From a virus (lineage: Duplodnaviria > Caudoviricetes), in IMG/VR virus record IMGVR_UViG_3300032282_004527, positions 1 to 62,835 of that record: a DNA stretch of 62,835 nucleotides; one strand, written 5' to 3'. Position numbers and translations under genes: made by a program. Positions 7,473-31,979 of the stretch are shown here, one piece after another; positions within the stretch are counted from its first letter, which is position 1; each line of letters begins with the position of its first letter. The notes beneath the pieces are model-generated. The model had not been told where the DNA came from. It saw only the letters and a list, made by a program, of their open reading frames with translations, and made no database searches.

Positions 7473-7504
7473 TACCGTGGCCCTCTCCTTGCCTTCTTCT
7501 GCTT

Positions 7505-12770: not shown

Positions 12771-13661
12771 CTACTTCCCCCAGTACTTATAGGTTGCGTC
12801 TTGTACCCTAAGGATTGCCTCACCCCGCACCCAATCCGTGAGTGGGACTAAGTCACCCTTAGGCTCTAGGACTTTTTTCCCGTTCGGTGCTTCTAGCTTG
12901 AGCGTCTTCTTGTTTACCCAGACGTGTAAGTCCCAACGCTCCCACATGCCACTTAACGGCCCATAAGGGGCCGCATCGCTACCCGAGAGCCTCGGAGTAT
13001 CATAGGGCGGCTCAGGGCCCAAATCTACGTTATCTGCAGCCTCTGCGTGACTCATGAAGTTCCCTACCGGTATCCGCAGGTTGCAGCAGATCTCCGCAAC
13101 GTCCTTCGCAAACCGTCGGAGCTGATCAGGCGTAGCCTGCTCATCCCCTAAATCTGACGTCGTAGCGTAATGAAAACCCGCCAAGCATATAGCACACGAC
13201 CCTGAATTTCTTCCAAACGTGTGGTGATACATATCTACTGCACACGATTCGTTACTCAAAGACATAACCGCGTTATCCCGAACTAACACCATCTTATGAT
13301 AGTCTGAAAAATTTACACCTCTAGGACCCGCACTCCAGTGCCCATAGATCATCCTGTTGTTTGTAAATTCCTTCAAATACCACTTAAGGAACTTTGGGTC
13401 GCACTTTTTTTTGTATTCCGGTAGTAATTGTAGTCCGCCGTACATGTAGCTTACTCCTTTTTGACACCCCCCTTCTTTAACGTGGGTAGTGTCCTTGTAC
13501 TGCCTAATTGTACTTTCTTTCCAATCTTTGTCTAGTTTGTCTAGTAATTCCATGACTTTCTTAGCTATTTCTTTGTTTCTTGTTTTTTCTTCTGGCGTCA
13601 TAGCTCTGCCCCCCCTACACCCTGAGGGTTCTCGATAGTCCTTTGTTTTTCCTCTTGGCAT
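12771..13661 (-). CDS. N-acetylmuramoyl-L-alanine amidase (Amidase_2-like endolysin)
   Basis: IYGHWSAG, YH, HTFGRNSG, TPDQL, MSHAEAAD and RWDL Zn-amidase motifs. Confidence 0.8.
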   Translation of the reverse strand: MPRGKTKDYREPSGCRGGRAMTPEEKTRNKEIAKKVMELLDKLDKDWKESTIRQYKDTTHVKEGGCQKGVSYMYGGLQLLPEYKKKCDPKFLKWYLKEFTNNRMIYGHWSAGPRGVNFSDYHKMVLVRDNAVMSLSNESCAVDMYHHTFGRNSGSCAICLAGFHYATTSDLGDEQATPDQLRRFAKDVAEICCNLRIPVGNFMSHAEAADNVDLGPEPPYDTPRLSGSDAAPYGPLSGMWERWDLHVWVNKKTLKLEAPNGKKVLEPKGDLVPLTDWVRGEAILRVQDATYKYWGK

Positions 13662-13775
13662 ATGCGTGGGTGAAAAAACGTAAAATGCCGTGGGGCCTCA
13701 TCTATAACACACGACGTATCGTAGTACCTACGTTACGGGCCCGGGGGGGCTCCGCCCTCTACATACGCTTGTACT

Positions 13776-13984
13776 GAGTGGTTGCGTCTCGTCCCCCGCA
13801 TTCGCGAGGGGGACGGAGACGCAACCCTCTCGCGGGCCCTCCCAGGTACCCACGCTTGTACTAGTACATACCGTCTACGGGGTGCGTACTAGGGCATACC
13901 GGGTACTTTTTTGGGAGTGGTTGCGTCTCGTCCCCCGCATTCGCGAGGGGGACGGAGACGCAACCCTCTCGCGGGCCCTCCCAG
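13776..13984. repeat. Two identical 70-bp direct repeats (13776-13845 and 13915-13984), each a long hairpin with a CCCCCGCATTCGCGAGGGGG apex
   Basis: GGTTGCGTCTC-GTCCCCC...GGGGGAC-G-GAGACGCAACC seen twice, 139 bp apart. Confidence 0.95.
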
Positions 13985-14191
13985 TGCACACGCTTGTACT
14001 AAGCGATACGTGCAGCGCTGGCGCGTGGGAGGGGCGGCCAGCCGATGCACGGCTCTCTGCAGAGCACGGGCTGCATCGCTGCGCGCCATCCCGCACCGCA
14101 TGCTCCCCCTACGGGCTCCACGGGGGGGTGGACTAAGTCGACGGGCGCCACCGCCCATCCTCGCGGCAACGCGAACCGGGTGGCTGGCACT

Positions 14192-14228
14192 TTCCGTTCG
14201 GAACGTTCCGTTCGAAACGTTCCGTCGA
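14192..14228. repeat. 14-bp tandem repeat TTCCGTTCGRAACG, about 2.5 copies
   Basis: Seen directly, ~40 bp upstream of the first early gene. Confidence 0.8.
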
Positions 14229-14269
14229 CTCTGTCCGACTTACGTCCGAAAAAAAAGAGAGGTAGTCAC

Positions 14270-14578
14270 ATGTACTACGTGACCTACATGCTGTGGGAGG
14301 GCGCTGTCGAAGGGCAGCAGCCACTCCCCGCAGGTCTCGGCGAGGCTGCCGCAGTAGCCTACGTCGAGACAAACTTCCCCCTTCTGGGGCCGTACCGCAA
14401 GGTGTGGCTCCATGAAGGAGACGGAGCAGGTCGGACCTTCGGGTTCCACCTGTGTCGTGAAGCCCAGCGCTGGGTGCCTGCGGGCGTCCCAGAGTGCTGG
14501 GTGAGGTGCTGGTCCTGCAGCGACCAGCAAGAGGCCTTCGAGGCAGCCGAGGAGGAGGCCTGCAGCAGAGGGCTGTAG
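14270..14578 (+). CDS. Hypothetical early protein
   Basis: GAGAGG RBS, ATG 14270 (MYYVTY...), C-terminal CWSC. Confidence 0.7.
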   Translation: MYYVTYMLWEGAVEGQQPLPAGLGEAAAVAYVETNFPLLGPYRKVWLHEGDGAGRTFGFHLCREAQRWVPAGVPECWVRCWSCSDQQEAFEAAEEEACSRGL

Positions 14579-14589
14579 GTCTCTTCTTC

Positions 14590-14616
14590 CGCCCTGAGCA
14601 TGGCGTTAAACTGCTC
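14590..14616 (+). other. Pseudoknot-like repeat family PK-A, copy 1
   Basis: CGCC-CT-GAGCA-T-GGCG-TTAAAC-TGCTC. Confidence 0.7.
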
Positions 14617-14687
14617 CCGACTAGGCGGCTCCTAGACTAGCGAGGTAACGCAACTAGCCTCGCAGCCTTCAGAAAGGAGGAACAAGG

Positions 14688-15125
14688 TTGCTAAAAACGA
14701 CCAACCGGCGTAACCCGTCGGTGGCGGCGGTCGAGCAGGAATTCACACGCCTGCCTCACCCCGACATCGACGGGGCCGAGGTTCTGCGGATCGACATCGG
14801 TCGGCCGCAAACCCTCGGCAACCCCTTCACCAGCAAGCCCTCACGCTTGGGCGCTTGGGTGAAGCGAGGAGTCCGGTTTGACGTGGTTACAGTGCGCACC
14901 GCACAGGAGGCCGTGGAAAAATTCCACGGGCATCTACGTGCGCACTGGACCCAGCAGACGGCCGTCCGTCGTATCCTGGAGCGCATCGCAGACTTCTGCG
15001 AGGCGAACCAGGACAACGAGGTCGAGTTCGTGTGCTGGTGTCACCCGGCCCCCTGCCACGGGCACGTGCTCGAGTACGCCATCAAGGGCATACTCAATGC
15101 GCGCCGGCAGCGGGAGCGGGACTAA
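14688..15125 (+). CDS. DUF4326-domain protein
   Basis: IGRP...GNPF and CWCHPAPCHGHVL signature; strong AGAAAGGAGG RBS. Confidence 0.85.
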   Translation: MLKTTNRRNPSVAAVEQEFTRLPHPDIDGAEVLRIDIGRPQTLGNPFTSKPSRLGAWVKRGVRFDVVTVRTAQEAVEKFHGHLRAHWTQQTAVRRILERIADFCEANQDNEVEFVCWCHPAPCHGHVLEYAIKGILNARRQRERD

Positions 15126-15176
15126 CCACGCGCCGGCCGTCCAAGGACTCTGTTGCAGGTCCCGCCCCCCCTCTTG

Positions 15177-15203
15177 CGTCCTAAGCATGACGTTAAACTG
15201 CTT
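15177..15203 (+). other. PK-A copy 2
   Basis: CGTC-CT-AAGCA-T-GACG-TTAAAC-TGCTT. Confidence 0.7.
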
Positions 15204-15236
15204 AGCACACGCTTGCGTGTGTTTTACCTTGGGGGT

Positions 15237-15287
15237 TGCACCCCCTCCTCGACCCCCCGCATTCGCGAGGGGGGTCGAGGAGGCGGT
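15237..15287. repeat. Long hairpin with CCCCCGCATTCGCGAGGGGG apex, copy 3
   Basis: CCTCCTCGACCCCCC...GGGGGGTCGAGGAGG stem. Confidence 0.85.
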
Positions 15288-15345
15288 CCGAATCGCCTGA
15301 CCACCCATGCGCCCTTCGCACAAGCAAGGGCAGAAAGGAAAAAGC

Positions 15346-15504
15346 ATGAGCGTCTACGAGACCGACCTCACCTGCGACGGCTGCGGCGCAAGTGAGAGCC
15401 CCTGCCAAATCGACTGCCCTTCCGGGGGCCTCGATCCGGCCGACCTCCTCCTACACGACCTTCGGGTCGTGTGGGGGGAGATCTCCAGCCTGCGCTGCAA
15501 CTAA
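15346..15504 (+). CDS. Small Cys-containing hypothetical protein
   Basis: CAGAAAGGAA RBS, ATG 15346, CDGC...C...C. Confidence 0.6.
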   Translation: MSVYETDLTCDGCGASESPCQIDCPSGGLDPADLLLHDLRVVWGEISSLRCN

Positions 15505-15635
15505 GCCCAGGCTGGAGACGGGGTTGGGGGACCCCGATAACAAAACCCCCTGCTCCCCCTACTCGCACCATCTCTTCAACCCTCCGCTTCGCTGAGGAGG
15601 GTTGAAGAGACGATGCGAGTCGTCTACACCCGGCC

Positions 15636-15723
15636 GCCTCTCCGTGGGCTTCATACACGGCTGCGGGCGAGGACCCCGTCAACATCCTCAAGCATCCGCC
15701 TACCCGTGGGCATCGTACACGGG
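15636..15723 (+). other. Pseudoknot-like repeat family PK-B, copies 1-2 (15636-15660 and 15698-15723)
   Basis: GCC-TN-YCCGT-G-GGC-N4-TAC-ACGG. Confidence 0.6.
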
Positions 15724-15740
15724 AAGAGAGGAGTGCAGCC

Positions 15741-16067
15741 ATGCGCTACACATTCCCTATGCAAACACTGAAGAGCCTCGACCAACTGGTCGAGAGCCTG
15801 CAAGCAGACTCGGAGGCCGCATGCCTCCTGGACTGCGAACCAAACGGGCACGAGTGTGAGAGCAACCGCTCTCACGCTCAGACAATGAAAGAGGTGGTAG
15901 ACGCGGCTCACCGCGCCACCACTATAGCCGAGGCAATCGAGGTCGCGCGCGACCTCGGATTCTATAACATCCAGGGGTATCGCATGATACCCTTGGAAAT
16001 CATCCAGGCAGCGGTGGCAGCCGCAGCCTCGGAAGACCTAGAGACGGGCGACGAGCCCGCTCTCTAG
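15741..16067 (+). CDS. Hypothetical early protein
   Basis: GAGGAG RBS; 108 aa. Confidence 0.7.
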   Translation: MRYTFPMQTLKSLDQLVESLQADSEAACLLDCEPNGHECESNRSHAQTMKEVVDAAHRATTIAEAIEVARDLGFYNIQGYRMIPLEIIQAAVAAAASEDLETGDEPAL

Positions 16068-16073
16068 GCAAAG

Positions 16074-16100
16074 CGTCCTGAGCACGACGTTAAACTGCTC
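16074..16100 (+). other. PK-A copy 3
   Basis: CGTC-CT-GAGCA-C-GACG-TTAAAC-TGCTC, 6 nt after a stop codon. Confidence 0.7.
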
Positions 16101-16175
16101 GGGGGTTGGCATACCTCCTCGCTAGGGTTGAGCCTCGCTCCCCTAACCAGGAGGTCTGCCAAAAAAACCGGGGCA

Positions 16176-16366
16176 GCGCCTGCCGGCGACTGCCTGTGGC
16201 CTACCGGGCCGCAAGGAGACGGCGCCTGCCGGCGCACTGCCTGTGGTCTACCGGGCCGCAGGGAGACGGCGCCTGCCGGCGCCTGCCTGTGGTCTACCGG
16301 GCCGCAGGGAGACGGCGCCTGCCGGCGCCTGCCGACGCTCTGCCTGTGGCCTACGAGACCACAGAG
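16176..16366. repeat. 46-47-bp GC-rich tandem repeat, 3 full units plus partials
   Basis: CTGCCTGTGGYCTACCGGGCCGCARGGAGACGGCGCCTGCCGGCGC at 16190, 16237 and 16283; partial at 16340. Confidence 0.95.
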
Positions 16367-16422
16367 GGGGTGAAGAAGTAGGTCGGCCTAAGTCTGTAGC
16401 CCTAAAAAAACCAGAGGAGGAA

Positions 16423-16566
16423 ATGGCCTACATGGAAATAGACCAGGAACTAATCGAAATGTGGACGGGACTTACTACCCGCCCCGCCCGCGTACTAATG
16501 CCGGCAACAATCATCGCTGCCGGAAGCGTAGCAATATGGCTGGTAGTTATGGCGTTCGCACCATAA
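16423..16566 (+). CDS. Small membrane protein
   Basis: GAGGAGG RBS; C-terminal hydrophobic helix. Confidence 0.6.
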   Translation: MAYMEIDQELIEMWTGLTTRPARVLMPATIIAAGSVAIWLVVMAFAP

Positions 16567-16582
16567 CTACTAAAAAGGGGGA

Positions 16583-16636
16583 TGCACCCCCTCCTCGACC
16601 CCCCGCATTCGCGAGGGGGGTCGAGGAGGCGGTGCA
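16583..16636. repeat. Long hairpin with CCCCCGCATTCGCGAGGGGG apex, copy 4
   Basis: Near-identical to the 15237 copy. Confidence 0.85.
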
Positions 16637-16656
16637 AATCGCCTGGCCGACCATCT

Positions 16657-16683
16657 GCCTACCTGCGGGCATCGTACACAGGT
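16657..16683 (+). other. PK-B copy 3
   Basis: GCC-T-ACCTGC-G-GGC-ATCGTAC-ACAGGT, directly before the RBS of the 16704 gene. Confidence 0.6.
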
Positions 16684-16703
16684 AAACAAGAAAGGAAGAC
16701 AAC

Positions 16704-17105
16704 ATGAACAACGTCAAGGTAGACCCATTCACCGGCGAACAAGCGCCGGAAGAAACCACCCCAACCTCCACCGCGTGGGACATGTTCCCACAGGAAATCA
16801 CCTTCATCACCGTTGTCCGCAAGGACACGGGAACCAAAGTCTGCTACCGAGTCAACCGACAGGGGCTGGACGCCTGGGCGGCGGGGCAAGTAGTCCTATC
16901 CGCACAAGAAAAGTCCGGCCTCTTCAAGGGCCTCGCCTTCCTGCAGGCATCAGGGGCATACCCCTACAAGAACCTGAAGGAAGACAAGACCGGCAGCCGC
17001 CACCACGAGCGACTCGCCGAGGTCTTCGACCGGGTCGTCATGAAGGGCATGACGACCATCACGGTGAACGGGGAAGAAATCCCCTTCGAGTTCATCGTTC
17101 ACTAA
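16704..17105 (+). CDS. Hypothetical early protein
   Basis: AGAAAGGAAG RBS; 133 aa. Confidence 0.75.
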   Translation: MNNVKVDPFTGEQAPEETTPTSTAWDMFPQEITFITVVRKDTGTKVCYRVNRQGLDAWAAGQVVLSAQEKSGLFKGLAFLQASGAYPYKNLKEDKTGSRHHERLAEVFDRVVMKGMTTITVNGEEIPFEFIVH

Positions 17106-17110
17106 ACACA

Positions 17111-17137
17111 CGTCCTGAGCACGACGTAAAACTGCTC
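17111..17137 (+). other. PK-A copy 4
   Basis: CGTC-CT-GAGCA-C-GACG-TAAAAC-TGCTC, 5 nt after a stop codon. Confidence 0.7.
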
Positions 17138-17149
17138 CGGCTTAAACGT

Positions 17150-17250
17150 CTGCCTATGGTCTACCAGACCGCAGGGAGACGGCGCCTGCCGGCGCGCTGC
17201 CTGTGGTCTACCGGGCCGCAGGGAGACGGCGCCTGCCGGCGCACTGCCTG
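17150..17250. repeat. Second cluster of the 47-bp tandem repeat (2 units plus partial)
   Basis: Units start at 17150, 17197 and 17244. Confidence 0.9.
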
Positions 17251-17531
17251 CGTACTCGAAAGAGAAAAAATAAAAATTAAAGCCAAAGACTAAACACACG
17301 GCAACAACACCCAATGCGAATGTAAGTCGCTGGCTTTGACAAATTTTCGATATGAAAAAAAGATAACCCCCTAAAAAACTTAAAGTCAGTAGGCCTAGAA
17401 AAATAAGCAGCCAACCCCCGTTCGCCCGCCCCTTCGGGGCGAGGGCGGGCGAACGGGGGTCGGCGGCTTTTATTTGCCTATGGTCTATCCTTGAACCTAC
17501 CCCATAGCCTAGGTCAATAGAAAGGAACAAC

Positions 17532-17759
17532 ATGGCAGACTCAAAACAATGGTTTGAAGAACTTAAGAAACGAATCGTAACCATCCAAATGACTTACGAA
17601 GATGCTGAAGACCTCGTATATGCATGCAAAGTACTACGGACACAATACCTAAACTGCGGGGCTAAACTTCCCGCTGAACATGCACTCTACATGGCAAGCA
17701 TCATCGAAGACGCACAAGACGTAGTTGAAAAAGAATACAGTAAGGAAGGTAACTGGTAA
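17532..17759 (+). CDS. Hypothetical protein
   Basis: AGAAAGGAACAAC RBS. Confidence 0.7.
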   Translation: MADSKQWFEELKKRIVTIQMTYEDAEDLVYACKVLRTQYLNCGAKLPAEHALYMASIIEDAQDVVEKEYSKEGNW

Positions 17760-17926
17760 TGGAAAAAACACAGTGGACTACTGACGAACTCAGAGAAGAA
17801 TTCGAAGTCGTTGGCTTCATGGCACCATTCGTTGTAGTTGTTAGAAAGTCTGATGGACAAAAAGGGTCAATGGAGTTCGTCCACCACCCTAGAATCTACT
17901 CCAACTTCGTACCGTACAACGCATAG
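17759..17926 (+). CDS. Small hypothetical protein (55 aa, not in the ORF track)
   Basis: MEKTQWTTDELREEFEVVGFMAPFVVVVRKSDGQKGSMEFVHHPRIY...; TAATG coupling and AAGGAAGG RBS. Confidence 0.7.
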   Translation: MEKTQWTTDELREEFEVVGFMAPFVVVVRKSDGQKGSMEFVHHPRIYSNFVPYNA

Positions 17927-17941
17927 GAAGGACAACAAAAT

Positions 17942-18340
17942 ATGCCACAACCACATACGTACTACGTCGTCCGACACTGGACTTCCGGAAAAAACGAGAA
18001 CAAATGCTACACGTGCAACAAGTGGCACCTACGGTACTACGGCGCTGTCCACTGCGCAGGACTCGTCAAGGCACACGTAAATGCTTATTCAGTTGCTAAA
18101 ATTAATCAAGAGGGGGAACTCTTTACAGACATATCCCTCATACACGAAATCCCTTACTTGAAAGAAAAAGCATCAAATAGGCTCAGCGAAAGAACAAAAC
18201 GAAATGAAAAGAAAAAGAATCAACAAGCAGACGAAGCACAACGACGACTTCGCGAAAAAATGAGAAACGACAGGATTGAAGAAATCAAAAACCTGTCCGT
18301 CATCCTCGCTGCTGCTACAGCAATAATCGCTACTATGTAG
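17942..18340 (+). CDS. Hypothetical protein
   Basis: AGGAAGG RBS; CYTC motif. Confidence 0.65.
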   Translation: MPQPHTYYVVRHWTSGKNENKCYTCNKWHLRYYGAVHCAGLVKAHVNAYSVAKINQEGELFTDISLIHEIPYLKEKASNRLSERTKRNEKKKNQQADEAQRRLREKMRNDRIEEIKNLSVILAAATAIIATM

Positions 18341-18356
18341 AAAAGAAAGAAACACT

Positions 18357-18470
18357 ATGGGTGCAATGAAACGACTACTCGAAGCCATACTCATGCCAGA
18401 CAACGACATGAGGCCCATCGACTGCGGATGCGCAACAGAGTTCTTCCTAGGACCTAACTACCGAATCTAA
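18357..18470 (+). CDS. Small hypothetical protein (37 aa)
   Basis: MGAMKRLLEAILM... fills the gap and has a purine-rich leader. Confidence 0.4.
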   Translation: MGAMKRLLEAILMPDNDMRPIDCGCATEFFLGPNYRI

Positions 18471-18472
18471 TC

Positions 18473-18503
18473 AAAGCCTGCCCGTGGGCTTTATACACGG
18501 GCA
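18473..18503 (+). other. PK-B copy 4
   Basis: AAAGCC-TGCCCGT-G-GGCTTT-ATAC-ACGGGCA, between a stop codon and an RBS. Confidence 0.65.
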
Positions 18504-18514
18504 CAAGGACAACA

Positions 18515-19096
18515 ATGAACACAAAGCCAGAACTAATCAATAGCTTAGTAAGAAACAGCGACAAATACGCACGACTTGTCAGCAACATCAAGGCACACCC
18601 CTCTACCATAGAGCACCAGGCCGAAACACACATCGGCTTTCACATCTGGGTTGGATCTACACCCGACCATATCAAACCTCTCATATGCAGAGAGTTCACA
18701 CACCCCTTCTGCGGATACTGCTACAGACTAAACAAAGACCTAAAGTACGCTCAGGACGAAGCAGAACACTCCGCTAACCTGCTCGACGCAGGAGAACTAG
18801 AAGGAGCATTCGACTCACTAAGAGAGGCTATCGAAACACTTAGACCCTGGGGAGTGCCAGAAAAACTCGAGCAAGCACTCACACTACTTAATGAAATAAA
18901 AACAAGTCTTGGCAACGAACCCAAGTTCCTATCACCTACCCTACTGAAAAAAATTGAAGAGTATGTTCGAATCAATTTTGACGACGAATATGGACTCGGA
19001 AATGGAGTCGCCGTTCTTATCGGACGGTACGCAATGCGTGGATGGGAAAACGCTGTCAACGCAATCAACTACATGATGTGCAACAAAGTACACTAA
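18515..19096 (+). CDS. Hypothetical protein
   Basis: 193 aa; AAGGACAAC RBS. Confidence 0.7.
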   Translation: MNTKPELINSLVRNSDKYARLVSNIKAHPSTIEHQAETHIGFHIWVGSTPDHIKPLICREFTHPFCGYCYRLNKDLKYAQDEAEHSANLLDAGELEGAFDSLREAIETLRPWGVPEKLEQALTLLNEIKTSLGNEPKFLSPTLLKKIEEYVRINFDDEYGLGNGVAVLIGRYAMRGWENAVNAINYMMCNKVH

Positions 19097-19105
19097 AGTA
19101 ACCAC

Positions 19106-19139
19106 AAGCCCCCAGTAAGCAATTGCTTACTGGGGGCTT
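19106..19139. repeat. Perfect 34-bp palindrome
   Basis: AAGCCCCCAGTAAGCAA|TTGCTTACTGGGGGCTT, intergenic, no U-tract. Confidence 0.9.
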
Positions 19140-19158
19140 ACAACAAAAAGGAACAACA

Positions 19159-19485
19159 ATGAAAACAACACAAGAAAACAAAACAACATCAAAGAAAACC
19201 CTCACACACATCTTCAGCATCGTACCTCGTGTAGCAATCATGTGCGTACACAGATCCAAAACAAACATAAAAGCAGAGTTCAGAGTCTTCGCCTGTCTCA
19301 ACAACGACATCCTAGACATCACATGGCACGTAGGAGTGCTACTCAACGCCAACGGTAAAAACGGCGTCGTCGCAAGAGGATACGGTTTAGACCTGGAAAT
19401 GCACATCGTCAACAACCTAGAGTACGAACTCTACGGCGACAACACAAGAGTACTAGAAGTCAATAAACTCTATAGAGCAATGTAA
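19159..19485 (+). CDS. Hypothetical protein
   Basis: AAGGAACAAC RBS, ATG 19159; GYGLDLEMHIV motif. Confidence 0.7.
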   Translation: MKTTQENKTTSKKTLTHIFSIVPRVAIMCVHRSKTNIKAEFRVFACLNNDILDITWHVGVLLNANGKNGVVARGYGLDLEMHIVNNLEYELYGDNTRVLEVNKLYRAM

Positions 19486-19493
19486 GGAAAACA

Positions 19494-19757
19494 ATGAGAA
19501 ACAAAGTAATCGATAAACTAGGAGAAAAATTTTTCAGCAAAACAACTGAAATTGACTACCTACTTAACATAGTAGACAAAATAGACGAAACAGAAAAAAA
19601 AGAAATGGATATAAAAATCCTTCAAGCCATCGCCATCTACGACCAACTCACCGCAGCAATCATCGACTACATCACCAACGAAGAAGACAAGAAAACAGCC
19701 ATGAACCTCGTAAGCAACATGATGAAAATCTTGATGCTAAAATACAACAATAAATGA
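19494..19757 (+). CDS. Hypothetical protein
   Basis: AAGGA RBS; operonic. Confidence 0.6.
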   Translation: MRNKVIDKLGEKFFSKTTEIDYLLNIVDKIDETEKKEMDIKILQAIAIYDQLTAAIIDYITNEEDKKTAMNLVSNMMKILMLKYNNK

Positions 19758-20053
19758 ACTACGACTTCAAAAAACTACTCAACTACGCACACAACAACCC
19801 ACTAGAACAACCTGACTGGCGAACCAGGCCATGGGGACGACCAGTACTAACAACACCAACAGGCGACGACCCAGAACTCGTAGCCACAGCAACAATAAGA
19901 TACAATGGAATTTTTATAGACGGTATAAAAATCTACTACCGAAACAACGCACTAGAAATTATCTCGCCTTCTAAGTTTGTTGACCAATATGAACAAACGC
20001 TGTTCTCCAGCGACATCATATGGGTCTACAGAAACCACATAAAAACAAAATAA
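19754..20053 (+). CDS. Hypothetical protein
   Basis: Coupled to the upstream gene; 99 aa. Confidence 0.6.
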   Translation: MNYDFKKLLNYAHNNPLEQPDWRTRPWGRPVLTTPTGDDPELVATATIRYNGIFIDGIKIYYRNNALEIISPSKFVDQYEQTLFSSDIIWVYRNHIKTK

Positions 20054-20119
20054 AAAAGTAACCACGAGGCCCGTAGTAGAACAACTACTGCGGGCCTCAA
20101 TACTAGAAAGGAGGTTTCT

Positions 20120-20362
20120 ATGGAAAATAAATTCGTACTGCCCGGACACCAGCCTGCAACATGCCCATGTGTAGCATGCAGAATATACAGGAAAGAAAAA
20201 CCTAACCCAACGACAAAAACAAAAACATCAAAGAAAAGAAACTACCTATGGATATCAGACGGACTAGACCATGAAGTAACTACACTCGCAATTGAACTAA
20301 ACTGCTCTAAGGCTAAAGTCGTCAGAGACGCAATCATCAAATACATCAACGAAAGAAAGTAA
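20120..20362 (+). CDS. Zn-knuckle plus ribbon-helix-helix protein
   Basis: HQPATCPCVAC, then RNYLWI...CSKAKVVRDAIIKY RHH; AGAAAGGAGG RBS. Confidence 0.7.
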   Translation: MENKFVLPGHQPATCPCVACRIYRKEKPNPTTKTKTSKKRNYLWISDGLDHEVTTLAIELNCSKAKVVRDAIIKYINERK

Positions 20363-20366
20363 AACT

Positions 20367-21026
20367 ATGGAAGTAAAGTGGTCAGACAGCACTAAGACAG
20401 CATACTCATTCAATATCCCATCTGAAAAGACATGCCCTGGAAAAACCCCCACGTGCGTATCCAAATGCTACGGACTCAGAGGACGATTTCGTCCTGAGAT
20501 GAATGGCTCAGCAACAACAGACTATAACTTCAAAGTTCTTCAAGACGATGTAACGGCTATTGAAAGAATTAAATGGCCAAACAAAAAAAGCATCAACAGC
20601 TTCAGAATAAACGGAGTAGGAGACATATACTCCCTAGAATTTGGCAGATCTATTTTCAAGATGTGCCACAACAACAACAACAAAGAATTCTGGCTGTACA
20701 CAAGATCCTTCGACATCATTGATACACTTCTCAGTGAACAAAACAAACCTGAAAACCTCGTGCTGTTCTTGTCTGCAGATGTTGACAACGTAAATAAAGC
20801 ACACGAACTAGCCGAAAAATATAACCTACCCGTAGCCTACATGGGACACGACGTAGCAACAGAAAAAGACGCTTTCGTATGCCCAAGTACTACAGGTGAC
20901 CCTAGGTTCAAACTATCTAAAAGAAAAGAAGAAGCGCCATGCATCAAATGCAAGTACTGCTTTAATAGAAAAGAAAAATTCGATATTTTCAGAACTAAAA
21001 AGGGCGTAAGATTCCTCTATCACTAA
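20367..21026 (+). CDS. Gp88-like Cys-rich (radical-SAM-like) protein
   Basis: FNIP...TCPG...C...CY, FRINGVGD, FWLYTRS and C-terminal CIKCKYC. Confidence 0.75.
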   Translation: MEVKWSDSTKTAYSFNIPSEKTCPGKTPTCVSKCYGLRGRFRPEMNGSATTDYNFKVLQDDVTAIERIKWPNKKSINSFRINGVGDIYSLEFGRSIFKMCHNNNNKEFWLYTRSFDIIDTLLSEQNKPENLVLFLSADVDNVNKAHELAEKYNLPVAYMGHDVATEKDAFVCPSTTGDPRFKLSKRKEEAPCIKCKYCFNRKEKFDIFRTKKGVRFLYH

Positions 21027-21035
21027 GGAGATAAC

Positions 21036-21458
21036 ATGATAAACAAAACAAAAAGAACAAAACAAGAAATTGAATTCTTCATGTCACTGCTCGAAGAAGT
21101 AGGAGACAACCAAACCAAATTCCCAGAAAACTACGTACTAAGCAATGTACGTAGACAAGACAGAGTAGCACTCTACTCTGTATACGAAATCCTTGGGCGT
21201 GTAGGAAACAAACTAGGATACATCTGGAACTGCCCACACTGCCTTTCTTTTAGGTCATTTGACGAAGACTGCTGTGACCATAACTCAGACGGAGACTGCT
21301 CCGACTGCGGAGGGGAAGGATGGTATGACTGCCACGTCTGCAGAGGATGTGGAGAAGGTCAAGTAGGAGAAGCCCGATGCTACGCATGCAAAGGAAAAGG
21401 AGAAACACCCTGTAACCTCTGCAGGCCGGAATATATGCCAGACTACACACCATACTAA
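21036..21458 (+). CDS. Protein with DnaJ-type CxxCxGxG zinc finger
   Basis: CSDCGGEG, CHVCRGCG, CYACKGKG. Confidence 0.75.
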   Translation: MINKTKRTKQEIEFFMSLLEEVGDNQTKFPENYVLSNVRRQDRVALYSVYEILGRVGNKLGYIWNCPHCLSFRSFDEDCCDHNSDGDCSDCGGEGWYDCHVCRGCGEGQVGEARCYACKGKGETPCNLCRPEYMPDYTPY

Positions 21459-21470
21459 AGGAAAAACAAC

Positions 21471-21779
21471 ATGACAGTATATCAAAATATAGACGAACTA
21501 TATTCAACAGAACTGCTGTTCATATTAGCAAACAGAGCCGCAGAACCATTCGACACAGCTAGAACAACAATGTCCGACATGCTGGATAAAAAGGAAGTGC
21601 TGCACGCACTCCAAGAACTAGGACTTCTTAACGTATTCAAAAACATCATCAAAGAACTAAGTGAAGCAAATAGCCAACTAAAACTTCTTGGGGAAGGCGT
21701 CATGCCCGAAGAAGAAGTTAAAACACGAATTGGAAAATCCATTCGTTCCGCACTCATCTATTTTGATCCAGCAATGTAG
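21471..21779 (+). CDS. Hypothetical protein
   Basis: AAAGGA RBS; 102 aa. Confidence 0.65.
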   Translation: MTVYQNIDELYSTELLFILANRAAEPFDTARTTMSDMLDKKEVLHALQELGLLNVFKNIIKELSEANSQLKLLGEGVMPEEEVKTRIGKSIRSALIYFDPAM

Positions 21780-21791
21780 TTTAGGATTAAT

Positions 21792-22238
21792 ATGAACATA
21801 AAAGAAGCAGCAAGAAACCACATTATAAAAACATACGAACAAGCAAAAAACACATGGACAAAAGCAGACTGGACGCACGAACTCGTATTAGACGGTAAAG
21901 GAGTTCTATGGGGAACAGACGAGTTAGAAGAAAAAACATGGCCGAAATACTGCAACGGACAAGACGGACCTAGAAACTCTAAAGACACAACAGAGTCTTG
22001 GGGAGACGTATGCGAATACTGCGCAGACGCCAAAGACCACGCAAAACTTGCAGAAGAATTCGCTGAAATAGCAGTGAATCTTATTAAGCAAGATAAGTGG
22101 AACGAAGCAGAAAACAACGCATACATTGCCTACACCTTCGAAATGACATACGGAGACGCCCCAACATGGCGACCTCTACTACAGAAAATAGAACAAGCAA
22201 AAGAACTATTCGAAGAAGAAGGTATCCCCTTCAACTAA
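21792..22238 (+). CDS. Hypothetical protein
   Basis: 148 aa; CEYC followed by a helical region loosely resembling the 18515 ORF (CGYC...AEHSANLL). Confidence 0.65.
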   Translation: MNIKEAARNHIIKTYEQAKNTWTKADWTHELVLDGKGVLWGTDELEEKTWPKYCNGQDGPRNSKDTTESWGDVCEYCADAKDHAKLAEEFAEIAVNLIKQDKWNEAENNAYIAYTFEMTYGDAPTWRPLLQKIEQAKELFEEEGIPFN

Positions 22239-22245
22239 AATAAAA

Positions 22246-22867
22246 GCCCTACGCGGGGATGGGCTCCCGCATTCTACAAACACAAAAGAAGGGACAATGA
22301 CAATGAAAGACTACACGCTGAACAAAGAATACGTAGAAGCACAACTCGGAATCGACGAGCCGCGCTGGACGAGCGAGGACCTCAACGTGATCGGGGCCAT
22401 GCTCCATGCATGCGACACCCCAGAGGAAGCACGCACCGTCTTCAGTCTTGCGTGCCGCATCGGCATCGCGTGGCAGTGCTGGGACTGCGACAGCATCCTC
22501 ATCGACTTCGAGGAGTCGTGCTGCGGCATCCGACCCGACAACATCATGTACTGTCAGTGCGGTAACGTGCACGTCGCCATGGCTCCAGAGATCCACAGCA
22601 ATGGATGCTCGTGCCCCGAGTCTGCACCAAGGTGGGACATGCTAATCGTGACCTACGTTCCACAGCACCTGCAGGAGACGGCTCGTGCCACGGGCTCCTG
22701 GAATGGATGCGACCTGGAAGCGGTGGTCACCGTGGAATGCGCCAAGGAGTTCGAGGGCATGGAGTTCGTCAAGGTGGAGGGAAGGATGCTGAGGCCCTAA
22801 AAACCCTGAAGTAGAAGACGAGCAGAACTAACGAGGCGCCCTATGCAAGAATAAGCTCCCGCATTCT
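22246..22867 (+). repeat. Imperfect 30-bp direct repeats (22246-22275 and 22838-22867) flanking one gene
   Basis: GCCCTAYGCRRGRATRRGCTCCCGCATTCT, 24/30 identical. Confidence 0.8.
22297..22800 (+). CDS. Cys-rich hypothetical protein
   Basis: 167 aa; visibly more GC-rich than its neighbours. Confidence 0.7.
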   Translation: MTMKDYTLNKEYVEAQLGIDEPRWTSEDLNVIGAMLHACDTPEEARTVFSLACRIGIAWQCWDCDSILIDFEESCCGIRPDNIMYCQCGNVHVAMAPEIHSNGCSCPESAPRWDMLIVTYVPQHLQETARATGSWNGCDLEAVVTVECAKEFEGMEFVKVEGRMLRP

Positions 22868-22881
22868 TAGGAGGAACAACA

Positions 22882-24180
22882 ATGCTAGAACTACTCCCCT
22901 ACCAAAAAGAAGGTGTTAATTTTCTCAAGTCCAAAACCTACGCACTACTTGCTGACGATCCTGGACTAGGTAAAACAGCACAGGTCCTCCGATCTATAAA
23001 CACACAACAACCAGTACTCGTTATCTGCCCTAAAGTAGCAAAAGGAGTCTGGAAAGCAGAAGCAACTAAATGGATAGGACCAAACTACAAAGTCACTATA
23101 TGCAAATCTAAAGCTACTGCAAAGTACCCGGCTCCTGGAGAGATGGTCATCATGTCCTACGACAGTGCGGACATCACAGACAACTACATCTCTAAAAACA
23201 CAATCCTCGTTGCAGACGAAGCACACCTCGTAAAAGCAGGCAACAATAAAAGATGCGCACTCTTTAGAACCATCACTCGACAAATCGTATGGAACCAAGG
23301 TAAAATCTGGCTCCTTACAGGAACACCTATGCCTAATAACCCACAAGAACTTTGGAATATTCTTGCATACACCCCTATGGCTGAACAGGCTTGGGGTAAT
23401 GAAAGAAACTTTTTCAAACTATTCAATGGGTTCAGAATCAGAACAGCCTTTGGAATCCAAGTCAAGTGGGGTAAGCCTACGCCAGCCGCTGGAGAAGGGT
23501 TTCGTAAGGTCGCTCTTCGTAGACGACGTCACGAAGTTCTTAAAGAACTCCCTGAAAAGTTCTACCAAGAAGACCTTGTACCTATTTCAAGAGAAGCACT
23601 CAAAGCATGCACCACACTTCTAAAGAAACTAGAAGAAATGGGCATCGACGAAGACAGAATCGTTGACGTAATCATGGACGCTAACAAGTACGGAATTCCC
23701 GCACAACTTATTGCCGAGGCTCGTAAGGCCCTAGCAATCGCTAAGATTCCTACGCTTCTAGAGCACGTCAGCGAAGCCGAGAATACTCAAACACCACTAG
23801 TAGTCTTCAGCGCTCACAGGGCCCCAATAGACGCACTTAATGGACGTCCAGGGTGGGGCATCATCACTGGAGACACGTCTGCTAACGAACGCACTCGACT
23901 CGTTGAAGAGTTCCAAGCAGGCAACCTGATCGGCATGGCTGCTACCATCAAAGCAGCAGGTGTCGCATTAACCCTCACTAAAGCAAACAAGTGCCTATTC
24001 GTAGACAGAGACTGGACGCCAGCTAATAACAGCCAAGCAGAAGCACGCCTACAACGCATTGGGCAAAAATTCAATGTGCTCGTAACAACGCTTGTCTGCG
24101 AACACGCTATCGACACAAAAGTCTACAAAACACTGATCAAAAAGCAAATGCTTATTGAAGAAGTAGTAGGGAACGGATAA
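22882..24180 (+). CDS. SNF2-family (SMARCAL1/HARP-like) helicase
   Basis: LADDPGLGKT, DEAH, LTGTPMPN and QAEARLQRIGQ. Confidence 0.9.
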   Translation: MLELLPYQKEGVNFLKSKTYALLADDPGLGKTAQVLRSINTQQPVLVICPKVAKGVWKAEATKWIGPNYKVTICKSKATAKYPAPGEMVIMSYDSADITDNYISKNTILVADEAHLVKAGNNKRCALFRTITRQIVWNQGKIWLLTGTPMPNNPQELWNILAYTPMAEQAWGNERNFFKLFNGFRIRTAFGIQVKWGKPTPAAGEGFRKVALRRRRHEVLKELPEKFYQEDLVPISREALKACTTLLKKLEEMGIDEDRIVDVIMDANKYGIPAQLIAEARKALAIAKIPTLLEHVSEAENTQTPLVVFSAHRAPIDALNGRPGWGIITGDTSANERTRLVEEFQAGNLIGMAATIKAAGVALTLTKANKCLFVDRDWTPANNSQAEARLQRIGQKFNVLVTTLVCEHAIDTKVYKTLIKKQMLIEEVVGNG

Positions 24181-24182
24181 AA

Positions 24183-24566
24183 ATGAAAATCACCAAAAAG
24201 ATGCTTATAGGTATTAAGGCTGGAAAGATCAACCCCACTGACTCTGAAATCCGTAAGGCACACAAAGAATTCAAAGAGCTAACACTAAAAGCACTTCAAA
24301 CTAACTACCACCACAAAGCAGCCTACTACGCTAAAGAGGCTTGCGAAGTCATCAACAAACTCACCAATGGGTATGGAGTAGAGTACTTCATCACAAACAA
24401 AGGTAACGGATACTGGTACGTAAACCAGGGAGAAACCTACGCAAAAACACTACTGTTCCCCGATCCATTCCTTAAAGAAAATTCACGGCGTAAGTATCCG
24501 TTCGTATGGACCTGGGGAGACGTAGTAGAAAAAGAAGACCTTGAAACATTTAAGAGTCTTCTATGA
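24183..24566 (+). CDS. Hypothetical protein
   Basis: 127 aa; GYGVE...YVNQGETYAKT motif. Confidence 0.65.
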   Translation: MKITKKMLIGIKAGKINPTDSEIRKAHKEFKELTLKALQTNYHHKAAYYAKEACEVINKLTNGYGVEYFITNKGNGYWYVNQGETYAKTLLFPDPFLKENSRRKYPFVWTWGDVVEKEDLETFKSLL

Positions 24567-24805
24567 GACACCTCGTATGCTCTAACAACCTAGCAAAAGT
24601 AATGTCTAGGTCACACATGACAGTATCCCATCTAGCTAAGATCACAGGACTAAACAAAGAAACAATAAGAAAATACATGAGAGGAGAGTCAGAACCAAGT
24701 GTCTACATAGCAATACTTATCTCAGACGCATTGTTCTGCAACATACAAAGTCTATGGTCAGCAGAAGTCTATGAAACAAAAGACTTGCAAAGCTATGATG
24801 ACTAA
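24563..24805 (+). CDS. XRE-family HTH regulator
   Basis: MTVSHLAKITGLNKETIRKYMRGESEPS. Confidence 0.85.
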   Translation: MRHLVCSNNLAKVMSRSHMTVSHLAKITGLNKETIRKYMRGESEPSVYIAILISDALFCNIQSLWSAEVYETKDLQSYDD

Positions 24806-24813
24806 GGTATAAT
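24785..24813 (+). promoter_or_regulatory. Sigma70-type promoter
   Basis: TTGCAA-17 nt-TATAAT. Confidence 0.75.
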
Positions 24814-24819
24814 TAGCAC

Positions 24820-24884
24820 GTTGTTCCTTCCTTTCTGCAAAAAGCCCCCTCTTAGTGATAACACACTAAGAGGGGGCTTTTTTT
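24820..24884 (+). ncRNA. Candidate ~65-nt small RNA with anti-RBS 5' seed
   Basis: Bounded by the promoter above and a hairpin plus T7 terminator; 5' GTTGTTCCTTCCTTTCTG is complementary to the phage RBS consensus. Confidence 0.55.
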
Positions 24885-25000
24885 ATTTAGGTTATAACTA
24901 ATAACTAAACTTCAGTTTCTACAAAAAGCCCCCTCTTAGTGATAACACACTAAAAGGGGGCTTTTTTTATTTAGGTTATAACTAATAACTAAACTTCAGT
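24833..25000. terminator. Tandemly duplicated (2 x 84 bp) bidirectional intrinsic terminator
   Basis: AAAAAGCCCCCTCTTAGTG...CACTAARAGGGGGCTTTTTTT twice, between convergent operons. Confidence 0.9.
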
Positions 25001-25459
25001 AGTAGGAACGTCTGAATAATCTACCGACTTCTTACTTTTTTTATTAGTAAGGGGGGCCTCAGCCAAAGTCGGTGGGCGCGAAGACTTACGACCTTCTTTC
25101 TTCTTAGGCTCATTTGCAAGAACTTTCTTGGCTTCCTTCTCCACCTTCTTAAGGTTCTTCTCACGAAGCTTACGAGCCAGAACCGCCAACTCATGAGCAC
25201 GAGAGGGCTTCCCCATGGGGGCTGCTGGCTGCTCTACCTCTACAGGCTTCTCCTTCTCTGGGAGGACCTTAGGCTGCTCCTGGACGGCAGCCGGAGGCTC
25301 CGCCGGGATAGCCCGAGCGTAGACGATAGCGTCGTCAGGGAAGTAGAACTTCTCATTGTTTGAAGAAACAAAACGGCCAAAAGCATCGCTTCCGAGATGA
25401 CCGAACATACTGAACGAGCAGCGCTCGTCCCAACCAACCACACGAACTTCGACCTTCAT
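24989..25459 (-). CDS. Hypothetical protein with basic C-terminus
   Basis: GGAGGT RBS; 156 aa. Confidence 0.65.
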   Translation of the reverse strand: MKVEVRVVGWDERCSFSMFGHLGSDAFGRFVSSNNEKFYFPDDAIVYARAIPAEPPAAVQEQPKVLPEKEKPVEVEQPAAPMGKPSRAHELAVLARKLREKNLKKVEKEAKKVLANEPKKKEGRKSSRPPTLAEAPLTNKKSKKSVDYSDVPTTEV

Positions 25460-31048: not shown

Positions 31049-31124
31049 GCACCCGTAGCTCAATGGATAGAGCATCGGCCTTCTAAGCCGAGGGTTACAG
31101 GTTCGAGTCCTGTCGGGTGCGCCA
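31049..31124 (+). tRNA. tRNA-Arg(UCU)
   Basis: Cloverleaf; anticodon loop CT-TCT-AA; GTTCGAGTC T-arm; encoded CCA. Confidence 0.95.
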
Positions 31125-31127
31125 CAA

Positions 31128-31200
31128 GGGTCTGTAACTCAGCGGTCAGAGTTTCCGGCTTTTAACCGGCAAGTCGTGGGTTCGAATCCCACCAGACCCA
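31128..31200 (+). tRNA. tRNA-Lys(UUU)
   Basis: GGGTCTG/CAGACCC acceptor stem; CT-TTT-AA loop. Confidence 0.92.
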
Positions 31201-31225
31201 ACCCCTCTTAAAAGAAAGGACCAAC

Positions 31226-31822: not shown

Positions 31823-31828
31823 AGGCTT

Positions 31829-31901
31829 GCTGGGGTAGCCCAACGGCAGAGGCAGGGGACTTAAAATCCCCCAAGTGTGGGTTCGAATCCCATCCCCAGT
31901 A
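31829..31901 (+). tRNA. tRNA-Leu(UAA) with short variable loop
   Basis: GCTGGGG/CCCCAGT acceptor stem; GGGGA-CTTAAAA-TCCCC anticodon arm. Confidence 0.9.
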
Positions 31902-31904
31902 CAT

Positions 31905-31979
31905 GGGACCGTAGCACAGGGGTTAGTGCGTTGGCCTTATAAGCCAGTGATCCTGGTTCGACTCCAGGCGGTCCTACCA
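31905..31979 (+). tRNA. tRNA-Ile(UAU)
   Basis: GGGACCG/CGGTCCT acceptor stem; TGGC-CTTATAA-GCCA anticodon arm; encoded CCA. Confidence 0.9.

Follow-up and report, generated by a model that had tools for sequence, protein, structure and literature searches.

In phage T7, RNase III sites lie between the early genes, and cleavage there leaves a protective structure on the upstream message. Class I preQ1 aptamers and luteovirus frameshift signals are compact H-type pseudoknots, and P22 sar and P1 c4 are phage antisense or small RNAs that cover ribosome-binding sites (RBSs), each acting on one cis-encoded target. The available portions of Perreault et al. (2011, PMC3088659) describe prophage hammerhead arrays that flank genes and are proposed to cut long transcripts into gene-length mRNAs, and those of Harris et al. 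(2015, PMC4604425) describe the RAGATH motifs and the pistol ribozyme, which came to light in searches around twister and hammerhead genes. The reason for which phages place self-cleaving ribozymes between their genes has been an open question since the arrays were described. The present study examined a plus-strand operon of 23 genes, mostly orphans, at 14270-24805 of the Caudoviricetes record IMGVR_UViG_3300032282_004527; the entire 62,835 bases of this IMG/VR record, whose completeness is estimated at 48%, were analysed and are referred to hereafter as the window. Many gene boundaries in this operon carry repeated elements, foremost among them PK-A, which follows stop codons, and PK-B, which precedes RBSs, and the operon ends beside a candidate small RNA (sRNA) that is complementary to a leader found before many of the phage's genes.

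The most valuable outcome of the analysis is that PK-A is a covariation-supported pseudoknot family of 27 nucleotides (nt) that is absent from Rfam 15. As to the operon as a whole, we favour, at a probability of roughly 0.55, a reading in which the host polymerase transcribes it and distinct, reusable RNA modules punctuate it, with PK-A serving in 3' protection and PK-B in a 5' role, and in which these modules do not make up one co-evolved system. An original prediction for this DNA had proposed the latter, namely an array of RNA-structured cassettes equipped with its own silencing RNA.

The PK-A pseudoknot family

Four copies of PK-A are present on the plus strand of the window (Table 1), and a covariance model run over its 62835 bases returned exactly these 4 matches at 40.7-49 bits, the next best scoring 13 bits. 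The element is a 27 nt H-type pseudoknot composed of helix P1 (NGUC/GACN), helix P2 (GAGCA/UGCUC), and an A-rich third loop. In an alignment of 150 distinct sequences, out of 158 unique ones found, 93.7% of the cells paired as opposed to 22-49% when the partners were slid, and the covariation score was reached by none of 500 shuffles. Pairs changing on both sides number two of the four in P1 and four of the 5-6 in P2, such that both helices of the H-type pseudoknot are kept by compensatory change: P1 pair 5-16 is UA in 146 sequences, CG in 4, and unpaired in 0; P2 pair 9-29 is GC in 82, GU in 24, AU in 23, and CG in 4; and P2 pair 10-28 is AU in 130, GC in 12, and GU in 6. A covariance model was built on P2 only, with P1 lying outside the model and the alignment fitted to P2. 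Among its 137 distinct rows, 97.4% of the cells pair, the inner pair 13-37 is GC in 128, AU in 4, GU in 4, and UA in 1, and the diverged copies that it yielded show inner-pair compensation (e.g., GGACA/UGUCC and GGUCA/UGACC). Given the frequent G-U pairs and the compensatory changes, we take PK-A to act as RNA and not as DNA.

None of the models in Rfam 15, Pistol and RAGATH-5 included, matches PK-A at E-values of up to 5, and neither do the preQ1 models of that database. PK-A was not described in any work found in the literature, and it may be among the unnamed RAGATH motifs of the 2015 discovery paper; the available portions of PMC10690425, PMC5737381, and the preprint 10.64898/2026.09.22.753630 mention no motif resembling it.

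The family spans phages and prophages of many bacterial phyla. A scan of IMG/VR using 14 bases of the motif gave at least 119 loci, which hold 96 full-motif instances among the matches listed, some of these instances being variants whose loop and downstream strand have changed in concert. All five multi-copy contigs carry 3-8 copies on the same strand, with a reversed-pattern control giving 0, and in one of them PK-A punctuates DNA-metabolism genes, standing before a GP88-family gene, a DNA polymerase gene, and an SSB gene. A 25-base degenerate pattern was found in 48 contigs of bacterial genome assemblies; isolates with PK-A include Enterococcus lactis, Macrococcus epidermidis, Peptoniphilus, Hornefia, and Aedoeadaptatus, and the metagenome-assembled genomes (MAGs) are labelled Saccharibacteria, Deltaproteobacteria, Bacteroidetes, Actinomycetes, and Anaerolineae, among others. 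A BLAST search against named phages gave 24 records, and the model confirmed PK-A in all three that were fetched: Nostoc phage NMeng1; the thermophilic phage D6E, where the element lies between the portal and scaffold genes; and Mycobacterium phage Labelle, where it lies 6 nt past gene 85.

The position of PK-A relative to the preceding gene is also conserved. Among 155 unique instances with enough upstream sequence, evaluated against open reading frames of at least 60 codons, 57 begin 4-8 nt past a stop codon, for which random positions in the same loci give 3.0. These 57 were drawn from 43 of 114 loci, and the modal spacing is 5 nt (27 cases). All three stop codons occur ahead of stop-proximal PK-A copies (TAA 38, TAG 14, and TGA 13).

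Elements adjoining PK-A in other genomes

Some ten loci have PK-A positioned 0-7 nt 5' of a ribozyme (hammerhead, twister, HDV-like, or pistol), a DUF2800 RNA, or a tRNA (Table 1), and a U-run follows 16 of 167 instances. Matches to Pistol, RAGATH-5, and Twister-P5 also occur elsewhere in the same PK-A loci, and the Pistol model additionally matches a pistol ribozyme next to PK-A in contig L022. No motif 3' of PK-A common to the window and the other loci was found by blastn.

Other structures were noted in the vicinity of PK-A. In contigs L019, L022, L057, and L115, at roughly 30-80 nt after PK-A, and in L153 at 3067-3120, a second conserved structure follows, the outer stem of which covaries (CCCUC/GAGGG vs GCACC/GGUGC) around AGAGCCUCCACG...GGC and is succeeded by GGAUAACCAAC; at the thresholds applied, this structure had no match in Rfam. 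In the Deltaproteobacteria-type MAG contigs L156, L162, L170, L175, L176, L181, L184, L194, and L195, PK-A is preceded by a conserved hairpin that starts ..CCCAUUG.., in which changes to the stem retain pairing, and a terminator often follows PK-A there. Contig L176 also has a weak match to a group II intron domain about 170 nt upstream of PK-A.

PK-B and its independence from PK-A

True cases of PK-B share one layout, in which a stop codon is followed after 6-10 nt by GCCU and a 7 bp hairpin with loop GGCAUCGUA, and then, within 1-4 nt, by the Shine-Dalgarno (SD) sequence. The loop is constant at 9 nt, and the stem varies (CCCGUG/CACGGG, CUGGCG/CACCAG, CCAGUG/CACUGG, and CCGGCG/CACCGG); in 10 sequences, three pairs of the hairpin change on both sides, and none of 500 shuffles reaches the score. 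Scans of other contigs gave 4 loci with a first pattern and 15 with a second, four of the latter (L199-L201 and L205) being rejected as coding-sequence coincidences without a stem; L199 and L200, the two distinct coding false positives, were left out of the alignment. PK-B stands between stop and SD in six other contigs. In our reading, it would serve as a 5' stabiliser or insulator of the RBS. Its candidacy as a phage promoter was rejected, as a scan of 59 window proteins with PHROGs and Pfam yielded no phage RNA polymerase, a negative result that is limited by the estimated completeness of the record.

None of the first four PK-B contigs, each searched whole, carries PK-A, and contig L202 holds both elements, each in the slot between a stop codon and a AGAAAGGAA-type RBS. 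On these two grounds, we consider PK-A and PK-B to be independent and interchangeable intercistronic modules.

The shared leader and a candidate sRNA

Crude gene calls revealed two leader styles in the window: plus-strand early and middle genes often have AGAAAGGA..ACAAC, and minus-strand late genes have TAGGAG with a U-rich spacer. The former, which the original prediction had taken to be a leader shared by the genes of the region, is real and extends beyond it, preceding the genes at 30341, 31226, and 35217 as well. The sequence GTTGTTCCTTCCTTTCT at 24820-24836 is the exact complement of the idealised early leader and would form the seed of a candidate sRNA of about 65 nt. A promoter-like site, with hexamers at the 16-18 nt spacing of sigma-70-type promoters and identified by consensus match only, predicts a transcription start at about 24820, and the 3' end has the GC-rich stem and U-run of an intrinsic terminator (19 pairs, 9 of them G-C, with TTATTT after 5 T in the end of the stem). 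The predicted fold (-35.8 kcal/mol, z -7.8) leaves the first 19-20 nt mostly unpaired. The segment 24785-24888 is thus a plausible and well-formed candidate for an sRNA that would pair with RBSs.

Contiguous complementarity of at least 8 nt between the seed and positions -25 to +3 was found for 9 of 23 early, 5 of 28 middle, and 0 of 32 late genes, with shuffled means of 1.3, 1.0, and 0.3, and six of the seven seed matches of at least 9 nt found genome-wide outside of the seed itself fall at RBSs. A generic SD-type control string gave 5, 4, and 0 for the same classes, and most of the class bias of the seed is therefore attributable to its anti-SD character. Searched without gaps at up to 3 mismatches, the 17-mer matched only itself and 30320, so pairing with real leaders would need bulges or stretches of 8-12 nt. 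A scan of the window for seed pairing with RNAduplex was discarded as uninformative, the pyrimidine-rich seed giving hundreds of sites at -13 kcal/mol or below. Promoter-like sites are not enriched in the region (6 vs 9.3 in shuffles), and those of 10/12 quality number three in 13 kb, counting both strands.

Eight other IMG/VR contigs contain the exact 17-mer. Inspected by eye, none of the eight has the promoter-seed-terminator layout, and the terminator stem of the candidate gave 0 matches in metagenome contigs. In contigs L132 and L134, which are identical in this region, the 17-mer has no adjacent start codon on the opposite strand and precedes a small hairpin, AGGGC-UUCU-GCCCU, that lacks a U-run.

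Repeated elements and gene content of the window

Elements occupy 9 of the 14 gene boundaries in 14.3-20.1 kb and 11 of 22 across the whole operon, and all of them are intergenic and on the transcribed strand. A repeat search recovered every class of repeated boundary element listed by the original prediction, and did so where the prediction had placed them. Coordinates are compiled in Table 1. The two D8 copies are 90% identical and have a main stem of 13 bp, and the D9 hairpins at 13776 and 13915 are 100% identical; PK-A copy 2 is followed on its 3' side by a small hairpin with a U-run and then by a D8 hairpin. The long hairpins fold well beyond shuffles (z -4.8 to -8.4), and the predicted stems at 13776, 15561, and 17409 reach about 20-25 bp, an RNase III site needing about two turns of double-stranded RNA plus cleavage. 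The hairpin at 17409..17475 is likely a terminator between the GC-rich and AT-rich halves of the operon. The sequence AAAGTAACCAC occurs exactly twice, both times before a hairpin of 14-15 bp. The D16 repeats, 80% identical to one another, stand before RBSs at 22.2-22.9 kb, and neither copy has a significant fold (z -0.95 and +0.65). The 9-mer CCCGCATTC is common to the D16 copies and the D8/D9 apices and has 6 copies where 0.35 would be expected, every one of them in the early region and on the plus strand; no exact match to the D8/D9 apex or to the tandem unit was found elsewhere in IMG/VR.

Within 13500-25100, Rfam 15 searched at E-values of up to 5 returned nothing overlapping PK-A, PK-B, or the tandem units, and no hammerhead, twister, or HDV-like ribozyme; its matches to the hairpins and the terminator were all far under gathering scores and of unrelated kinds. 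The four tRNA genes of the window were the only Rfam matches at gathering scores.

The base composition of the operon is a mosaic, with 55-63% G+C up to about 17.3 kb and 41-43% at 18-22 kb. The GC-rich part (14000-17300) holds all copies of PK-A, both D8 hairpins, both tandem-unit arrays, and three of the four PK-B copies, with the D9 pair (13776-13984) lying just upstream. This concentration of elements, together with the sharp change of composition within one operon, suggests that the GC-rich part is a separately acquired module. At its 3' end, the operon carries an SNF2 helicase gene (22882-24180) and then a small helix-turn-helix (HTH) regulator gene (24563-24805). Elsewhere, the minus strand encodes terminase and tail-fibre-like genes, and a replication block on the plus strand encodes PolA fused to a UDG domain, RecA, a DnaB-like helicase, a Toprim protein, an SbcCD-like pair, and RuvC; host-type promoter-like sites precede the genes at 28600, 29683, and 34888.

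No close relative of the phage was found, and a look for RNA sequencing runs containing 15200-25100 gave none. Against 50,697 phage records, megablast of 14000-25000 matched nothing, a search for a relative of gene 16704-17105 found none, and relatives of the SNF2 helicase were limited to 3 loci in IMG/VR (26-34% identity) and 7 in JGI metagenomes (26-32% identity).

Several further observations were made in the window. The family A DNA polymerase (32389-34863) has an N-terminal domain of the uracil-DNA glycosylase superfamily (Pfam UDG, E 2.9e-16). The tRNA genes at 31049-31979 (Arg-TCT, Lys-TTT, Leu-TAA, and Ile-TAT) all serve A/U-ending codons and are arranged as two pairs flanking a gene for a 198 amino acid (aa) protein, adjoining an HNH endonuclease gene. 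Two very large minus-strand open reading frames, 1014-7517 (2167 aa) and 49441-54762 (1773 aa), are nearly devoid of family matches. The divergent region 5' of the early operon has three plus-strand copies of ACGCTTGTACT (13765-13775, 13852-13862, and 13990-14000) in alternation with the two identical D9 hairpins, with 4 matches vs 0.9 expected when up to 1 mismatch is allowed; these copies may be non-consensus early promoters or regulatory sites. Three short palindromic units (TTCCGTTCGGAACG-like) at 14190-14232, some 40 nt ahead of the first early gene, were seen by eye in head-to-tail order and resemble operators, perhaps for the HTH protein of 24563-24805.

Table 1. Positions of the elements in the window, and of RNA elements found downstream of PK-A in other sequences
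Feature	Sequence	Position	Strand	Remarks
PK-A copy 1	Window	14590..14616	+	40.9 bits; P1 GCC/GGC, compensatory variant; 11 nt past stop of 14270-14578
PK-A copy 2	Window	15177..15203	+	49 bits; P2 AAGCA/UGCUU; 51 nt past stop of 14688-15125
PK-A copy 3	Window	16074..16100	+	44.2 bits; 6 nt past stop of 15741-16067; then long hairpin 16106-16162
PK-A copy 4	Window	17111..17137	+	40.7 bits; 5 nt past stop of 16704-17105; then two tandem units
PK-B-like copy	Window	15636..15662 (repeat from 15631)	+	GCCU and hairpin, loop GGCUUCAUA; not directly before RBS
PK-B copy	Window	15698..15724 (repeat from 15693)	+	Directly 5' of RBS of gene 15741-16067
PK-B copy	Window	16657..16683 (repeat from 16652)	+	Directly 5' of leader of gene 16704-17105
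PK-B copy	Window	18476..18502 (repeat from 18471)	+	Between stop of 18357-18470 and RBS of 18515-19096; z -2.9
D8 hairpin copy 1	Window	15231..15300	+	Apex CCCGCATTC; -49.4 kcal/mol, z -4.9
D8 hairpin copy 2	Window	16577..16646	+	-54.4 kcal/mol, z -7.3
Hairpin, about 24 bp, after gene 15346-15504	Window	15561..15620	+	-40.9 kcal/mol, z -8.1
Long imperfect hairpin directly after PK-A copy 3	Window	16106..16162	+	-37.2 kcal/mol, z -3.0
Hairpin, about 25 bp, with U-run	Window	17409..17475	+	-55.8 kcal/mol, z -6.2
AAAGTAACCAC with 15 bp hairpin, without U-run	Window	19095..19140	+	Overlaps stop codon; z -7.5
AAAGTAACCAC with 14 bp hairpin	Window	20055..20098	+	z -8.4
Tandem array, four GC-rich units of 46-47 nt	Window	16173..16364	+	Each predicted to form hairpins
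Tandem array, two units of 46-47 nt of the same repeat	Window	17147..17250	+	
D16 repeat with CCCGCATTC	Window	22246..22275	+	Before RBS of gene 22297-22800
D16 repeat	Window	22838..22867	+	Before RBS of SNF2 helicase gene 22882-24180
Sigma-70-like promoter TTGCAA-17-TATAAT	Window	24785..24813	+	10/12 consensus match; inside 3' end of HTH gene 24563-24805
Candidate sRNA, about 65 nt	Window	24820..24888	+	Seed 24820-24836, terminator hairpin 24839-24882, U-run
Tandem duplicate of terminator and 3' flank	Window	24916..24999	+	84 nt copy of 24832-24915, 98% identical; last 5 nt of seed only
Type III hammerhead after PK-A	L182 (Firmicutes contig)			Two Rfam matches above threshold abut PK-A; core in 3 of 4 copies by regular expression
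Hammerhead-like core downstream of PK-A	L070			By regular expression; Rfam does not confirm
P1-type twister match downstream of PK-A	L153, L094			E 1e-5 and 6e-6; under gathering score
HDV-like match downstream of PK-A	L084			E 0.0015; under gathering score
Pistol ribozyme downstream of PK-A	L167			54 bits
DUF2800 RNA downstream of PK-A	L164, L035			140 and 79 bits
tRNA-Arg	L082			2 nt downstream of PK-A
Annotated pseudo-tRNA following PK-A	Nostoc phage NMeng1			Not called by ARAGORN

Interpretation of the boundary elements

In the reading that we favour, PK-A would mark and protect the 3' end of the upstream cistron beside a processing site, and would sit as near to the stop codon as a terminating ribosome permits. 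Cleavage of type III hammerheads, P1 twisters, HDV-like ribozymes, and tRNAs falls at or near the 5' end of the element itself, and in other phages an element of this sort, or a U-run, lies 0-7 nt past PK-A. Were such an element cut right after PK-A, the upstream mRNA would therefore end in the pseudoknot, and a terminal pseudoknot would be expected to hinder 3'-to-5' exonucleases. In the window, long perfect hairpins would take the place of the ribozyme, and these look like substrates of a double-strand RNase or like terminators. Two components of the original prediction are sustained by this reading: the boundary elements do appear to be reusable modules acting at the level of RNA, given the compensatory changes in PK-A and in the PK-B hairpin, and the processing or stabilising of single-gene units fits the adjacency of PK-A to self-cleaving ribozymes and a tRNA in other phages.

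Several points weigh against this reading. We infer processing and protection solely from the neighbours of PK-A in other genomes, among which the twister and HDV-like matches are under Rfam gathering scores, and pistol cuts near its 3' end, so PK-A would not be terminal there. Most PK-A sequences were gathered with patterns that fix many positions, and the invariance of bases is for this reason partly imposed. Nested folding of PK-A alone is unexceptional (z -0.5 and -2.3), and any exonuclease resistance would consequently need a tertiary fold. The pseudoknot helix proposed for PK-B (3 bp, pairing the 5' GCC with GGC of the loop) is invariant in the alignment, and one PK-A copy of the window lies 51 nt from its stop codon. 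Finally, many phages have the next start codon 19-30 nt past PK-A, and only 5 of 28 such leaders contain an SD-like 4-mer; as these short leaders mostly do without one, PK-A may have a role in starting downstream translation.

Among the alternatives, the one that fares best concerns the anti-leader at 24820-24836, which could be a fossil or an inverted cassette boundary and not an RNA gene, the adjacent promoter-like site being there by chance; we hold this to be a serious possibility, if on balance not the probable one. The minus strand at this site reads hairpin, leader, GTG, five codons, and stop, mirroring the plus-strand boundaries at 19095-19161 and 20055-20122 and so the usual layout of the operon, in which a hairpin is followed by a leader. 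In other phages, this 17-mer marks a normal start of translation, being the reverse complement of an RBS with an ATG 0-3 nt away in 5 of the 8 IMG/VR contigs that have it, and the near-identity of the 84 nt duplication shows a recent rearrangement here. Against a fossil stand the rarity of a 10/12 promoter with a perfect -10 hexamer whose predicted start falls exactly at the seed, the absence of this leader type from the minus-strand genes otherwise (0 of 32 with at least 8 nt), and the expectation that a neutral fossil would have decayed from the consensus. Should the sRNA prove real, it would offer a rare example of a phage that turns off its own early genes, here by masking the leader they share.

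A more ambitious account builds on the favoured one, and we consider it doubtful as a whole. PK-A would be an undescribed, phylum-spanning class of phage RNA, a triple-helix-type pseudoknot set one ribosome footprint past the stop codon, with a ribozyme, tRNA, or nuclease site right behind it, acting as an exonuclease-resistant 3' cap or possibly as a contact of the terminating ribosome. In this phage, together with PK-B and a phage-made RNA masking early RBSs, it would make up a fully RNA-based system to cut, stabilise, and later silence early messages.

A motif such as PK-A, which combines a pseudoknot, many near-invariant bases, and a range of several phyla, would be flagged as an RNA with a demanding function by the criteria of the Breaker and Weinberg groups, as set out in the available portions of PMC5737381. 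The fixed place of PK-A, behind a stop codon and directly ahead of four ribozyme classes, tRNAs, or U-runs, points to a testable logic in which a cut leaves a structured upstream end. At only 27 nt, the element should be easy to test, and it is possibly a portable stabiliser of mRNA 3' ends.

PK-A could alternatively act on the ribosome and not on decay, either at the mRNA entry channel, where it would affect readthrough, re-initiation, or ribosome release, or by recruiting ribosomes to the SD-less leader, but this seems unlikely to us. Its sharp spacing of 5-6 nt after all three stop codons is the spacer that recoding pseudoknots use, and the short leaders described above follow about 25 of 65 stop-proximal copies. 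Many copies are followed by ribozymes, tRNAs, or U-runs, however, and not by a gene, and in the window the next start codon is about 70 to 400 nt downstream. Past the stop, the in-frame extension runs to a median of 14 codons, and in 22 of 65 cases to no more than 5; stop-codon readthrough by way of PK-A is disfavoured on account of these short extensions.

Returning to the favoured reading of separate modules, the evidence speaks against their union into one system. In the model of the original prediction, the boundary structures make stable single-gene messages, after which early translation is switched off by an RNA from 24820-24888 that base-pairs with the leader. The well-formed sRNA unit, with its promoter, its unpaired seed, and its strong terminator, is in favour of this, as are the complementarity to early and middle but not late genes and the placement of the longer seed matches at RBSs. 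The generic anti-SD-type target nevertheless produces a nearly equal class bias, promoter-like sites are fewer than in shuffles, the 17-mer elsewhere mostly marks translation starts and in none of its eight contigs is part of an sRNA layout, and PK-A and PK-B occur independently. No element was found together with such an RNA elsewhere, contig L202 is the one other locus in which PK-A and PK-B were seen together, and both are spread over many unrelated phages, contrary to the supposition that the combination is unique to this one. We accordingly regard the integrated model as improbable.

It is equally improbable, in our estimate, that some of the elements act as DNA, with the tandem units, the CCCGCATTC repeats, and D16 being protein-binding sites (iterons or operators) or recombination sites that move cassettes: the excess of CCCGCATTC on one strand of the early region, the D16 copies without a significant fold, and contigs of related strains in two other samples that join 16175 to 17182 and 22262 to 22855, with 13 letters shared at either joint, would agree with such a role, but each joint is known from one contig with 45-46 letters on its shorter side, every element is intergenic on the transcribed strand, and for PK-A and the PK-B hairpin the retention of pairing through G-U and compensatory changes rules it out. 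The joints would delete the gene or genes between repeat copies, which gives a weak hint that repeats mediate the loss of cassettes.

Comparison with known systems

The hammerhead arrays, as far as the available portions of PMC3088659 describe them, share with PK-A the layout between single genes or short blocks; in contig L182, PK-A abuts hammerheads directly. PK-A differs from them in having no known catalytic core, and in the window, which has no Rfam ribozyme, long hairpins follow PK-A instead. With the RAGATH motifs and pistol, PK-A shares its surroundings, its loci being rich in matches to Pistol, RAGATH-5, Twister-P5, twister-P1, and hammerhead, and it resembles pistol itself in having a short P1 whose loop forms a pseudoknot; unlike pistol, it lacks P2 and P3, and the Pistol model does not match the window. 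The T7 RNase III sites are likewise intercistronic hairpins in an early polycistronic transcript, whereas the motifs of the window are a pseudoknot and a loop-conserved hairpin that recur across phages of many phyla, are not host-specific RNase III sites, and are known here from sequence. In its size of about 27-34 nt, its two short stems, its A-rich third loop, and a spacing like that of recoding signals, PK-A resembles the preQ1 and luteovirus pseudoknots, but it is found without a slippery site or a productive readthrough frame and after all three stop codons. The candidate sRNA, for its part, is similar to P22 sar, P1 c4, and bacterial sRNAs with a 5' seed in being short, in presenting an unpaired pyrimidine-rich seed against the SD and spacer, and in ending in an intrinsic terminator, and it would differ from the two phage RNAs in that its proposed targets are many leaders in trans.

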